DNA of 50,681 nt from positions 1 to 50,681 of the forward strand of contig JBHLON010000026.1 in assembly GCA_048940445.1 (NCBI GenBank), given 5' to 3'. Origin of the DNA: Promethearchaeota archaeon. Its GTDB lineage: Archaea; Asgardarchaeota; Lokiarchaeia; Sigyniarchaeales; SOKP01. Position 1 is the stretch's first letter. Each line of letters starts with the position of its first letter. A model generated the notes under the pieces. The model was not told the origin of the DNA. It did not search any database and worked only from the letters and a program-made list of their open reading frames with translations. The position numbers were made by a program, and so were the translations under genes. Positions 27,019-45,484 of the stretch are shown in pieces.

Positions 27019-27302
27019 AATATGATCACTATTTCATTTTTTATTAAAAATTATAATAAATAAACTGATATTAATACAACAATCTTATGGTAATTTATAT
27101 AAGTTAAACTTCTTAAAATGCTTTAATGTTAAAAAAGATGATAGTTAACTTTTTTATCAAATCGTGTTTAAAGATCAAATATGCCTTTTAGAAAGAAGCA
27201 TTATTCTTTCTTTTCAAGATGTTGAATTTAGATTGAAAGAAGATTATTTAAATAAACTTTTAGACTTTTTTTATTAAATAAAGATATAAAGTGATAATTA
27301 CT

Positions 27303-27764
27303 ATGAAAACGATAACCTTAACGATATTTGCCCCGGATCCCGAAAAAACACACTCTAAAGGTGTAAAATATGTCCTTGAGATGGATGAACGTGGATCGAT
27401 CATTGATGCTTTAAGTAAAATTGACAAAGATATGATAGAACATCCAGATAGATCCGTATTTCCCTTATACGAAGGCTTAATTCATAGTTATCTCCAACTT
27501 ATTTGGGATGCTGAAGAGAATAAGATTTATGATGATTGTGGTGTTGATGCATATGGGCCGAACAAGGAATTTATGCCTTTAAGGGACGATGTTGATTTCA
27601 ATTTACTTCCAGATTCTGATATTACAATTATAGTTCATGCTGATTGATGAGCTGACAATATGAAGGAACGTTTAGATTTTGGAGCATTTAAGAGAATCAT
27701 TCGAGAGAAATATGGAAAAGATAATGAAACATTTACTCACTATTTTAGTTTAATAAGAAAATAA
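27303..27764 (+). CDS. Candidate selenoprotein (153 aa, beta-grasp/ubiquitin-like) with two adjacent in-frame UGA codons; minimal ORF ends at 27647
   Basis: ...VHAD-TGA(27645)-TGA(27648)-ADNMKERLDFGAFKRIIREKYGKDNETFTHYFSLIRK-TAA(27762-64), followed by a SECIS-like hairpin. The CDS itself is confident; readthrough is inferred. Confidence 0.65.
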
Positions 27765-27773
27765 ATTAAAAAG

Positions 27774-27817
27774 TTGGAATGAATTCTTTCAAAAAAGCTT
27801 AGTGAAAGAACGACCAT
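27774..27817 (+). ncRNA. SECIS-like cis-acting RNA element (eukaryote/Loki type) in the 3' UTR
   Basis: TGG-A-ATGA-A-TTCTTTCA-[AAAAAGCTTAG]-TGAAAGAA-C-GA-CCA: AUGA/GA core, perfect 8-bp upper stem, A-rich apical loop, short TGG/CCA lower stem. Confidence 0.7.
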
Positions 27818-27983
27818 AGGATTGTGTCCTATAATATAAGCACATTTAATGAATAACCCCATCTCTGCGACTTTTTCTTTAATGGAGTAATTATAATAAC
27901 ACATTTGCTGAAAAAGTTTAATTATAATAGCTAATTATAAATATTGAATCAAAAAAATAATATTAAAAAAGGGGTATATTAAC

Positions 27984-28442
27984 GTGAAAGTACTTATTGT
28001 ATATTATTCAAAATATGGAAATACAGAAAAAGTGGCTAAATTAATTGCAGAAGGTATTACTTCTACTAATAGTCATGAAGTAATAATTGAGAACGTCAAA
28101 GATGTAAAGCTTAAAAAAGAAGCTTCCTATGATTTAATTTTAATGGGGTCTCCGGTTCATTTTGGAAAACATGTAGGGGCGATAAAGAAATTCATTGATA
28201 AACTTCCAAAATCTCAATTAAAGGCAAAAACTTATGCTGTATTTGATACCTATATAAAGACTGATTTTGAGAGCGGTGTTAAAAAGATGGAGAAACAGAT
28301 AAGTGAAGTGATGCCTGATTTAACAAAAGCAAGTTCTGGACTATCTATAAAAGTGGAGGGTACAGGGACTTCGAAAGGGCCTATAGTGAATGAAGAGCTT
28401 CCAAAATGTAAAGAATTCGGAATCAAATTAGCACAAGGATAA
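27984..28442 (+). CDS. Flavodoxin
   Basis: IVYYSKYGNTEKVA, GSPVHFG, AVFDT. Confidence 0.92.
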   Translation: MKVLIVYYSKYGNTEKVAKLIAEGITSTNSHEVIIENVKDVKLKKEASYDLILMGSPVHFGKHVGAIKKFIDKLPKSQLKAKTYAVFDTYIKTDFESGVKKMEKQISEVMPDLTKASSGLSIKVEGTGTSKGPIVNEELPKCKEFGIKLAQG

Positions 28443-31318: not shown

Positions 31319-31807
31319 GTGAAAGCTCTAGTAGCTTACGATACAAAATATGGAAATACTGAGCAAGTAGCAAGATTAATTGCAGAAGGAATTACTTCTA
31401 CTGGGAATAATGAAGTAATAGTAAATAATGTAAAAGATATAAATCTTAAGAAAGAAGATTCATATGACTTAATTTTAATGGGATCTCCAGTTCATTTTGG
31501 AAAGCATGTAGGGTCAGTAAAGAAATTTATCAATAAACTTCCAAAAGCAAAATTAAAGATAAACTCGTATGCTGTATTTAATACCTATCAGGGTGAGCCG
31601 ATAGAAGAAGGCCAGAAAGAAGGCGTATGTTATTATGAAAAAATGATAGTTAAAATGGAGAGCCAAATTAGTGAAAAGATGCCCAATTTAACAAAAGCTA
31701 GTCCTGCATTGTGTATAAAAGTTAAAGGGATGAAAGGCCCTATAACAGAAGAAGACCTACCAAAGTGCAAAGAATTCGGTATAAAATTAAGTCAAGGATC
31801 AAAATAA
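31319..31807 (+). CDS. Flavodoxin, paralog of 27984..28442
   Basis: YDTKYGNT, YDLILMGSPVHFGKHVG identical to the paralog. Confidence 0.92.
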   Translation: MKALVAYDTKYGNTEQVARLIAEGITSTGNNEVIVNNVKDINLKKEDSYDLILMGSPVHFGKHVGSVKKFINKLPKAKLKINSYAVFNTYQGEPIEEGQKEGVCYYEKMIVKMESQISEKMPNLTKASPALCIKVKGMKGPITEEDLPKCKEFGIKLSQGSK

Positions 31808-43767: not shown

Positions 43768-44595
43768 TTAACCTCTAAATCTTTTTTGCAGTGTCTTTTC
43801 ATGTAGTATAAACGCCAACAAAAGAAAACTGAATCCAAATATTAAAAGATACCCAAAATCAATCAATAAACCAAAGGATCCAAAGACACTAAGTTTTCCA
43901 AAACTTGTATTTAAAATATCCAAGAAATATGTTAAAGGCGAAACTAGTACGATCGGATTTATTATAATAGGCATAAATAATGGGCTAATGAATATTAAAG
44001 GAAATTTTACTAATATGGTAAGAATCATAGTTGAGGCTGGAGTGTCTGTAGGAGGTGCTGATAAAATTAAACTAAAAGAAGAAAATGAAAATGCTGATAA
44101 TAAGATTCCGGGTATTAAGATCAATAAATTAATAGTTTTCCATAACTCAAAAAAGGCTATACCTAAAATTAGAGGAACTGTGGCAAATATACATCCAAAA
44201 ATGAACGAACTCCAAACATTTCCTAGAAGAATTGTTTTGATTGAAATTGGACAAGTAATTAATCGTTCAAGAGTTTTCTGTCTCGTTTCCCATGGGAAAA
44301 CTACCGGTCCAATAGAAGTAGAAGTCAAAAAAAGGACCATTGTCATTAAACCGGAAATAATGTAAATTGGGATGATTTCTCTTCCAACTGTGAATGCTAA
44401 GAATAGCATAATCGGAAAAAGTATCCCTTGAATGACTACTGGACCTTTATTATAATAGATACGTAAATCTTTCTTACTTACTGCAAAGGAGCGTTTAATT
44501 TGAGAAAGAAAGATTTCAAATTTTGATTGTTTTTCAAATATATCTTCTTTAATTATTCTCACCATCTTTAATTGCATTAATAAATACTTCTTCAA
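43768..44595 (-). CDS. ABC-2 exporter permease, paralog of 1201..2001 (true start ~44553-44565)
   Basis: Near-identical protein to the first copy. Confidence 0.9.
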   Translation of the reverse strand: MKKYLLMQLKMVRIIKEDIFEKQSKFEIFLSQIKRSFAVSKKDLRIYYNKGPVVIQGILFPIMLFLAFTVGREIIPIYIISGLMTMVLFLTSTSIGPVVFPWETRQKTLERLITCPISIKTILLGNVWSSFIFGCIFATVPLILGIAFFELWKTINLLILIPGILLSAFSFSSFSLILSAPPTDTPASTMILTILVKFPLIFISPLFMPIIINPIVLVSPLTYFLDILNTSFGKLSVFGSFGLLIDFGYLLIFGFSFLLLAFILHEKTLQKRFRG

Positions 44596-45484
44596 GGGAT
44601 GGTTCTGGTGTATTAATTTTTATAATTTCAATATTTTTAGACCTAGTTAAATTGATTAACTGAACAATAGCTTTATCTAAGTCATTAACAATTATGTGAT
44701 AAAAGTCTTTTACTTTATTGACCTTATTAATCCCGTCTAGATTTTTAAAGCTGTTAATATCGATTTCTTTAGAGAGATATAAATCAACTGATTGACATTC
44801 TTTTTCTATTGTGCGTAAATTCTTAGGAGTATCTAATTTTATAATTTTGCCTTTATTGATTATTGCGATTCTATCACATAATTCATTTGCAACATCCATA
44901 TTATGTGTAGTCAAAAATATTGTCATTCCATTTTGATTATATTCTTTGATTAAATTTTTTATAATAATACTTGATTGAACATCTAAACCCGAAGTAGGTT
45001 CATCTAAGAATAAAATCTTTGGTTCACTCATAAGAGCCATACATAATAACAATCGCTGCTTCATTCCTTTAGAATATTTTTTTGCTATATTATCTCTTCT
45101 TTCAAATAATTCGAATTTTTTAAGAAGTCTTAAAGCTCTTTCTTTTCTTTTTTCTTTGGAAATACCATAAAGTTCCCCAATAAATTCAAGATTCTTTATT
45201 CCTGTTAAATCCATATAAACGTTAGATTCTTCGGGGACATTTCCAATAATCTCTTTAACCAAGATTTGGTTTTTCCAAACATCTTTCCCATAAATTTCAA
45301 TATTACCTGAGGTAGGTTTTAAAACGCCTGTCATCATTCGGATTGTAGTAGTTTTTCCCGCCCCATTCGGACCAAGAAATCCGAAAATCTCTCCATGTTG
45401 TACAGCGAAATTAACATTATTAACTGCTTTTATTTCACCAAAATGTTTTGAGAGATTATTTACATAAATCACATTCGAATCCAT
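44549..45484 (-). CDS. ABC exporter ATP-binding protein, paralog of 1982..2917
   Basis: GPNGAGKTT, YSKGM, LFLDEPT; also 311 aa. Confidence 0.95.
   Translation of the reverse strand: MDSNVIYVNNLSKHFGEIKAVNNVNFAVQHGEIFGFLGPNGAGKTTTIRMMTGVLKPTSGNIEIYGKDVWKNQILVKEIIGNVPEESNVYMDLTGIKNLEFIGELYGISKEKRKERALRLLKKFELFERRDNIAKKYSKGMKQRLLLCMALMSEPKILFLDEPTSGLDVQSSIIIKNLIKEYNQNGMTIFLTTHNMDVANELCDRIAIINKGKIIKLDTPKNLRTIEKECQSVDLYLSKEIDINSFKNLDGINKVNKVKDFYHIIVNDLDKAIVQLINLTRSKNIEIIKINTPEPSLEEVFINAIKDGENN

Follow-up and report, generated by a model that had tools for sequence, protein, structure and literature searches.

A candidate selenoprotein family of Lokiarchaeia with two consecutive selenocysteine codons, a 3′ lokiSECIS element, and a predicted beta-grasp fold

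Several selenoprotein genes of Lokiarchaeia, namely VhuD/MvhD, HdrA, VhuU, PrxL, and SelD (PMC4989117, PMC11227280), have a SECIS element in the 3′ region near the stop codon. This element, lokiSECIS, has been defined as an AUGA, a 9-bp stem, an 11-nt loop with an A-rich start and a final G, and then GA (PMC4989117). One SECIS may serve tandem genes, as published for HdrA-VhuD, and several Sec residues can accompany one SECIS. A survey of 409 Asgard genomes, in which only known families were sought, lists seven selenoprotein families (PMC11227280). The gene described here resembles the known lokiSECIS genes in the position of its SECIS, in the geometry of that element (AUGA, 9-nt arm, A-rich 11-nt loop ending in G, GA), in having several Sec codons per SECIS, and in the apparent use of one SECIS by tandem genes; the recoding system itself is already known. 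It differs in that the protein and its fold are unrelated to theirs and the UGA codons are adjacent.

Other systems show partial likeness. The MoaD, ThiS, SAMP, CysO, and Urm1 proteins have a beta-grasp fold with reactive residues at the Gly-Gly position, whereas the present family has no C-terminal Gly-Gly but an internal C/U-U site, a tail of 32-53 residues, domain insertions, and no Pfam ThiS match. The selenoproteins SaoL, SaoC, and HgcA (10.1101/2022.07.06.499078) also have vicinal Cys/Sec residues, truncation at the site in databases, and genes near those for metal(loid) transport or methylation, but they are bacterial and have one Sec per motif, other folds, and a bacterial SECIS. ArsD (PMC12415280) is likewise a small soluble protein of ars operons with a vicinal pair and a third As(III) ligand; however, it has no sequence match to the family, contains only Cys, and serves ArsA, and the analogy is purely functional.

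The window, by which we mean the whole 50,681-nt stretch of DNA analysed, carries the gene on the forward strand at positions 27303..27764. The reading frame starts at the ATG at 27303, runs through 114 codons ending in H-A-D, meets TGA-TGA at 27645..27650, and continues for 37 sense codons (27651..27761) to a TAA at 27762-27764, which gives 153 residues if both TGA codons encode Sec (Sec115-Sec116). A preliminary description of the locus, made before any database search, had placed the TGA-TGA, the 37 codons, the TAA, and an AUGA at 27779, the 15th base past the TAA, and all of these coordinates held. Its statement that standard gene callers truncate the gene also held, as approximately 110 of 120 database relatives, mostly labelled Promethearchaeota (Lokiarchaeia), end at the same point; three others are called through the site with TGA read as Trp. 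Residues 1-114 are the part kept in databases, as a hypothetical protein. A Shine-Dalgarno-like GTGAT lies at 27291..27295 (+), and its GTG is the start chosen by gene callers, which results in a 118-aa call. In most homologues, GGTGA or GGAGG is found 6-9 nt 5′ of the codon aligned with the ATG at 27303. A scan for promoters and terminators gave results below chance.

As a separate observation, 42 of about 79 parsed genes have ATT and 6 have ATA at the codon aligned with this ATG (e.g. L002, L009, L011-L016, L019, and L020), and about 25 lack any in-frame ATG, GTG, or TTG. Genome-wide, ATT is enriched 2.2-fold in frame after GGTGA/GGAGG-type motifs. AUU initiation in many family genes is a possibility suggested by these data, which are from sequence alone.

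The TGA-TGA pair is conserved throughout the family. Among 87 distinct homologous genes parsed from seven families of the class Lokiarchaeia, TGATGA was found in frame in all 87, with variable flanking codons. A single-protein search detected the gene in 49 of 61 related genomes, and two internal TGA codons were retained even at 25% identity. With a 28-sequence profile the family was found in 138 of the 161 Lokiarchaeia genomes searched (86%) and in all seven families sampled, and every listed full-length match has at least two internal TGA codons. It is present in the cultured Promethearchaeum syntrophicum MK-D1, whose genome belongs to the same order as that of the window; there the extended gene lies at about 805853-806335 (+) of NZ_CP042905.2. 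Some genomes hold 2-5 copies, and the window's own genome has a second paralogue, of the C-U-U type, at C63:16516. In 239 other Asgard genomes, the family was not found with the profile query used; two weak matches there were rejected, both being MoaD/SAMP-like ORFs with Gly-Gly at or near the end. In the window's own genome, TGA closes only 400 of 2675 long ORFs and TAA closes 1860 (70%). The invariant TGA is therefore not what would be expected of a plain stop, and the 400 ordinary ORFs ending in TGA indicate that UGA is not reassigned genome-wide.

The 37 residues after the pair behave as part of the same protein. Tails across the family are 32-53 residues long and conserve R123 and Y147. 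Within the U-U clade, changes at codon positions 1, 2, and 3 of the tail number 1434, 1107, and 3309, with 1993 synonymous against 865 non-synonymous changes, and this bias resembles that of the codons upstream of the site. Purifying selection on the tail is thus shown, with the caveat that the pairs compared are not independent. Two outcomes that would have refuted the initial proposal were checked. Homologues ending in TAA or TAG without downstream conservation were not seen. An independent 34-aa gene starting at 27660 is not supported either, since the Met at 27660 is not conserved; an in-frame ATG occurs in only 31 of the 87 tails, and 13 of the 87 contain no ATG, GTG, or TTG. At the RNA level, a 365-nt metatranscriptome contig of a relative crosses the TGA-TGA unchanged, which is only a weak hint. 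An MK-D1 RNA run gave a 38-kb contig of flat depth for which a DNA origin cannot be excluded, so it is uninformative on expression.

Homologues without Sec provide further evidence on the site. A profile search of the full library yielded proteins of about 130 aa with sense codons across it. Three Cys-only homologues, labelled Bathyarchaeota/Bathyarchaeia, have a single conserved Cys aligned with U115, followed by I, S, or G and a homologous helix. Another Sec-free protein, P0123, has C-V-S plus the whole tail and is nested among Lokiarchaeial sequences in the tree. These proteins run through the site with Cys at U115, which makes the tail part of the protein and U115 one half of a Sec/Cys pair. 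No Cys counterpart of U116 was found in the Sec-free homologues. Hence, of the patterns that the preliminary description had proposed to look for (Cys, Cys-Cys, or conserved TGA), Cys is seen at U115 only and TGA is conserved at both positions. Two further Lokiarchaeial-like homologues, P0174 and P0195, lack the Cys/Sec loop and retain the tail helix.

The hairpin at 27779..27814 (+) meets the published lokiSECIS criteria (PMC4989117), with AUGA, a 9-nt arm (8 pairs plus an A.C beside the core), the 11-nt loop AAAAAGCUUAG, and GA-C; the AUGA/GA SECIS-like hairpin initially noted was therefore confirmed. A strict descriptor including pairing gave 13 matches on both strands of the 3.64-Mb genome, compared to 2 in a reversed control. 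Seven of these lie at VhuD (three genes), VhuU, a PrxL-like gene, and the two family genes; of the other six, two are further candidates and four are unexplained or due to chance. Across the family, the strict form was found in 60 of 87 genes and, with loop length relaxed, in 81 of 87; the relaxed descriptor matched 1/87 on the reverse strand and 11/87 in upstream coding DNA. Several Watson-Crick pair types, and thus compensatory changes, occur at each of the 8 stem positions. Three of the six genes without SECIS are the first of a tandem pair whose second gene has one. A C-U-U gene in a single-contig genome (L049, G055) has no SECIS by the descriptors used, and no strict element was found at six Sec-free homologue loci. 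In MK-D1, a SECIS-like element accompanies the gene. A loose descriptor was too noisy (217 matches against 113 in the reversed control) and was dropped in favour of the published geometry. Taken without pairing, the sequence pattern alone does not reach significance in the window (0.78 expected), and the folding z-score of the hairpin is only −1.4, so the case for the SECIS rests on geometry and conservation rather than stability. A DNA search with the SECIS region in five genomes gave no match beyond the own genome.

A small auxiliary hairpin is located directly past the SECIS core (27816..27832, +). A similar one follows nearly all SECIS elements of the family and, by eye, those of the VhuD, VhuU, PrxL-like, and SelD genes of the same genome. 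In the genome it comes after the GA-C of most lokiSECIS (contigs C28, C80, C84, C100, C134, C27, and C2), and it often has GC in or at the loop. It is not mentioned in the passages of PMC4989117 consulted, and it may possibly be part of the functional element.

Other candidate selenoproteins were encountered in the same genome. A second uncatalogued candidate family (C27:8492-8689 (+), found as L131/L134, and C80:6165-6359 (−), with relatives L135-L153) consists of proteins of about 65 aa with one hydrophobic segment, then a Gly-rich-U-x-C sequence, followed by a lokiSECIS. Matches occur in 35 of 101 genomes of the class, most with one in-frame TGA. Small membrane selenoproteins such as SELENOK and SELENOS have a topology of which this is reminiscent. 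Strict lokiSECIS matches at C20:890 (−) and C110:8703 (+) have no recognised selenoprotein upstream; the former comes after a zinc-ribbon-like frame with several TGA codons and has the auxiliary hairpin.

A lack of Sec machinery would also have refuted the proposal. SepSecS (C61:60330), EFSec (C61:66168), PSTK (C59:35409), and SelD with an in-frame TGA (C2:48483) are all present in the own genome, EFSec and PSTK being best matches below curated cut-offs. No tRNA-Sec was found with Rfam or ARAGORN in this assembly, where only 10 tRNAs were detected in all. Relatives do have one that scores above the Rfam cut-off, namely the congeneric genome G023 and three single-contig genomes in which the gene also occurs. 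Collectively, we consider it very likely (probability about 0.92) that both UGA codons are decoded as Sec. The initial proposal of a 153-aa selenoprotein with a vicinal Sec-Sec pair is in this respect supported; Sec insertion is inferred and has not been measured, and there is no protein-level proof.

The preliminary description had also stated that the protein resembles none of the described Lokiarchaeota selenoproteins. This held in Pfam and NCBIfam searches: neither has a family for the protein, no member of a 27-row alignment gave an NCBIfam match under E 0.03, and no similarity was found to the seven described Asgard families (SelD, VhuU/FrhA, HdrA, VhuD/FrhD, PrxL, AhpF-N, and DsbA-like). 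What that description had missed are the beta-grasp fold, the C-U-U motif, the Cys-only Bathyarchaeia homologues, the second paralogue, and the arsenic/HgcAB-like context. An AlphaFold2 model with Cys in place of Sec (mean pLDDT 89.8, pTM 0.87) predicts a five-strand beta-grasp (residues 1-111), a loop holding the Sec pair, and two helices. The domain of residues 1-114 (27303..27644, +) is MoaD/SAMP/CysO/Urm1-like according to the model, structure comparison, and HHalign. Its nearest structures are CysO, the SAMPs, MoaD, and the transcobalamin beta domain, with Z scores of 6.8-7.5 that are middling alone (VIA Z of 7.5 for CysO, 7.2 for SAMP1, and 6.8 for MoaD; rmsd 3.0-3.4), and Foldseek gave probabilities up to 1.0 with E 0.006. 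HHalign to an Asgard MoaD-like protein (92.5%, E 5e-7) places U115-U116 on its last two glycines and Asp114 on the Gly preceding the terminal GG. For the Cys-only P0156, the ESM Atlas returned a Bathyarchaeota cluster at 0.88 and ThiS/MoaD at 0.81, which are leads only. A beta-grasp fold with U115-U116 where Gly-Gly would be is thus a prediction of the model. Since the terminal Gly-Gly is replaced by an internal selenol pair (U-U, C-U, or C-x at those positions) followed by the tail, the protein should be neither a conjugated modifier nor a thiocarboxylate carrier. It can be inferred from sequence and model that the family derives from a MoaD/SAMP-type fold, yet fails membership of these carriers.

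The motif around the pair is P-D-x-G-C-U-U in most members and H-A-D-U-U-A in the clade of the window gene. This U-U clade is monophyletic (support 100/97) and seen only in family f1, and genes of the two types often lie side by side. Gap-free alignment from both sides places the U-U of the clade on the C-U of C-U-U, so that U115 aligns with the Cys of C-U-U as well as with that of the Cys-only homologues; a compensating indel cannot be excluded. Cys79 (27537..27539, +) is specific to the U-U clade, being found in 22 of 23 of its genes and in 118/118 truncated database relatives, and the C-U-U genes have Val, Ile, or Leu there with 2 exceptions. From the strand register of the beta-grasp, Cys79 is inferred to lie beside residue 112, near the Sec loop, and it is a candidate third ligand. 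At the level of sequence, three chalcogen residues are kept in both clades, as C-U-U or as Cys79 plus U-U; the geometry of such a site has not been measured.

The gene neighbourhoods point in part to arsenic. In the own genome, the paralogue at C63:16516 lies in a cluster that comprises a divergent arsR, DUF166, acr3, a CpaM-type methyltransferase fused to an HgcA-like corrinoid domain, an HgcB-like ferredoxin, a CxC protein, the UU gene itself, and a YdjM-like hydrolase. We use 'like' here because HgcA and HgcB scores are below equivalog cut-offs. Among 20 wider loci, Acr3, ArsR, or ArsC was found in 18, with both clades taking part; these loci were hand-picked and 19 of 20 are from one family, so they are not independent. 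The genes arsM, arsP, DGC, and Trx3 occur in other loci. The ars link exists in two families, f1 (most loci) and f4. Of 20 loci from distant families, ars genes are found in three, all of f4, and aldehyde:ferredoxin oxidoreductase (AOR) genes adjoin another three, from f3 and f6; neither kind occurs within about 2 kb in the other 14. No ars gene was found within about 2 kb in f2, f3, f5, f6, or f7. The window copy has a divergent 4Fe-4S protein on one side and a flavodoxin on the other, and the 50.7-kb window contains no ars-cluster gene, just generic methyltransferase and ferredoxin matches. In MK-D1, acr3 is 2.8 Mb from the gene and unlinked. Neighbours of the Bathyarchaeia Cys-only homologues are mixed, and a NifU_N gene starts 4 nt after Sec-free P0123. 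No E1, MoaE, or JAB partner was recognised among recurring neighbours (flanks mostly 1.5-7 kb, not all annotated), and no arsA was noticed in family loci.

Some features of these surroundings were recorded as side observations. The HgcA-like corrinoid/membrane domain of L110:4173-6476 (own genome C63:14172-16478) has the cap motif NVWCAARG, and the CpaM-HgcA-like fusion, HgcB-like ferredoxin, and 90-aa CxC protein recur inside an arsR/acr3 cluster in many f1 genomes. In the window, two similar flavodoxin genes (27984-28442 and 31319-31807) are 3.3 kb apart, and ORF lengths with a repeated motif suggest another duplicated block at 1201-2917 and 43768-45484.

The following mechanism could be proposed. 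The lokiSECIS, 129 nt downstream, would let EFSec and Sec-tRNA decode both UGA codons, with truncated by-products likely too. The product would be a MoaD/SAMP-type domain with an internal selenol pair in place of the reactive C-terminal Gly-Gly, and with two helices after it. Its Se/Se/S site would be three-coordinate and would take up a soft metalloid or metal, As(III) or methylarsenite in the first place and Hg(II) in the second. The bound species might be buffered or handed to the Acr3 exporter, ArsM/CpaM methyltransferases, or the HgcAB-like pair, proposed partners whose genes adjoin most copies in the family. The neighbouring CxC thioredoxin-like protein is a possible reductant, and the window copy would be a paralogue that left the ars cluster. 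Such a three-ligand site is favoured because ArsA, ArsR, and ArsD each bind As(III) through three thiols, ArsD by means of vicinal Cys12-Cys13 plus Cys18 (PMC12415280), because CU motifs mark the metal-contacting selenoproteins SaoL and HgcA (10.1101/2022.07.06.499078), and because hgcAB is ArsR-controlled in Pseudodesulfovibrio according to the literature. Against this role, the window copy and MK-D1 have no linked ars genes, f2, f3, and f5-f7 have none nearby, and the Bathyarchaeia homologues have one Cys. In the absence of binding or transfer data, the inferred As(III)/Hg(II) role is as likely to be wrong as right.

The main rival, which remains possible, is that the same Sec-Sec protein is a general redox or sulfur/selenium carrier, using a vicinal diselenide or perselenide for tungsten/molybdopterin or Fe-S assembly or for oxidant defence, and that the ars link is a late recruitment in two families. 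In its favour are the closest folds, which are the sulfur carriers CysO, SAMP, and MoaD, the AOR neighbours in f3 and f6 and the NifU_N gene beside P0123, the housekeeping-like spread over 86% of class genomes searched, and the position of the window copy between a 4Fe-4S protein and a flavodoxin. However, the protein lacks a terminal Gly-Gly, an E1, MoaE, or desulfurase was not noticed among the listed neighbours, the AOR link (3 loci) and the NifU link (1) stand against dozens of loci with ars genes, and the retention of three chalcogen residues is left unexplained.

A selenium sink or store, in which two Sec per chain sequester Hg/As irreversibly or buffer selenium without hand-off, by analogy with the Sec-rich tail of vertebrate SELENOP, is unlikely. 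A variant locus (L103:430-441) with three TGA codons (U-G-U-U) plus SECIS, a Sec number held at two or more, and the 2-5 copies in some genomes would fit. On the other hand, the conserved fold and surface residues D41, D78, R123, and Y147 suggest specific partners, two Sec are little for storage, and the many copies that seem to start at AUU point to low expression.

Even less probable is that only the first UGA encodes Sec and the second is a stop. The protein would then end in Cys-Sec or Sec, as SaoC or thioredoxin reductase does, and the tail would be a relic. Decoding of consecutive UGA codons should be inefficient, CU-COOH selenoproteins exist, and ubiquitin-like proteins end at the same place. 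However, TAA makes up 70% of stops and a plain stop would drift towards it, whereas all 87 genes keep TGA as the second codon; the tail, moreover, is under purifying selection and present in Sec-free homologues. Finally, a double stop with an independent 34-aa gene from the in-frame ATG at 27660 (11 long ORFs of the genome do end in TGA-TGA), or a genome-wide reassignment of UGA, is all but excluded by the poor conservation of that ATG, the continuous homologous proteins in Bathyarchaeia, the conserved gene-specific SECIS, and the 400 ordinary ORFs closed by TGA.

Returning to the Sec-Sec reading, a bolder form of it would describe a class-wide selenoprotein on a ubiquitin/MoaD scaffold, in which Cys-Sec-Sec at the ancestral Gly-Gly serves an ArsR-controlled Acr3/HgcAB-like pathway by binding arsenic or mercury, and in which one eukaryote-type SECIS, without SBP2, recodes two UGA codons in a row (or as many as four on a bicistronic message). 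To the extent of the searches made, both its prokaryotic Sec-Sec motif and its combination of Sec with a beta-grasp fold would be firsts. As a joint claim, we would lean slightly against it. With respect to novelty, the family is absent from the lists of 7 Asgard and 11 archaeal families and could not be identified among the 119 prokaryotic families in the table of a 2026 review, none of which has a U-U motif (PMC13188914). The literature searched contains no description of it, most subscription journals being outside coverage. The sole Sec-Sec precedent found is the algal PDI_e with its GUGUU motif (PMC7539508), the end of which has the same spacing as the U-G-U-U of L103; that protein is eukaryotic and PDI/thioredoxin-like, and no relationship is indicated. 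As far as the searchable literature shows, the family, the fold for a selenoprotein, and a prokaryotic Sec-Sec are new.

The short archaeal selenoproteome thus gains a family as widespread in Lokiarchaeia (138/161) as the known ones, which homology surveys missed, since it is unlike any known selenoprotein and is stored in databases in truncated form. Its consecutive Sec codons offer a probe of 3′ SECIS action in a relative of eukaryotes that lacks SBP2, and the presence of the gene with a SECIS-like element in cultured MK-D1 makes this testable now. The chemistry of two vicinal selenols on a ubiquitin-like fold would also be new. Moreover, the operon context links selenium use to arsenic resistance and HgcAB-like genes, and bears on the question of why HgcAB evolved (10.1101/2022.10.17.512643).
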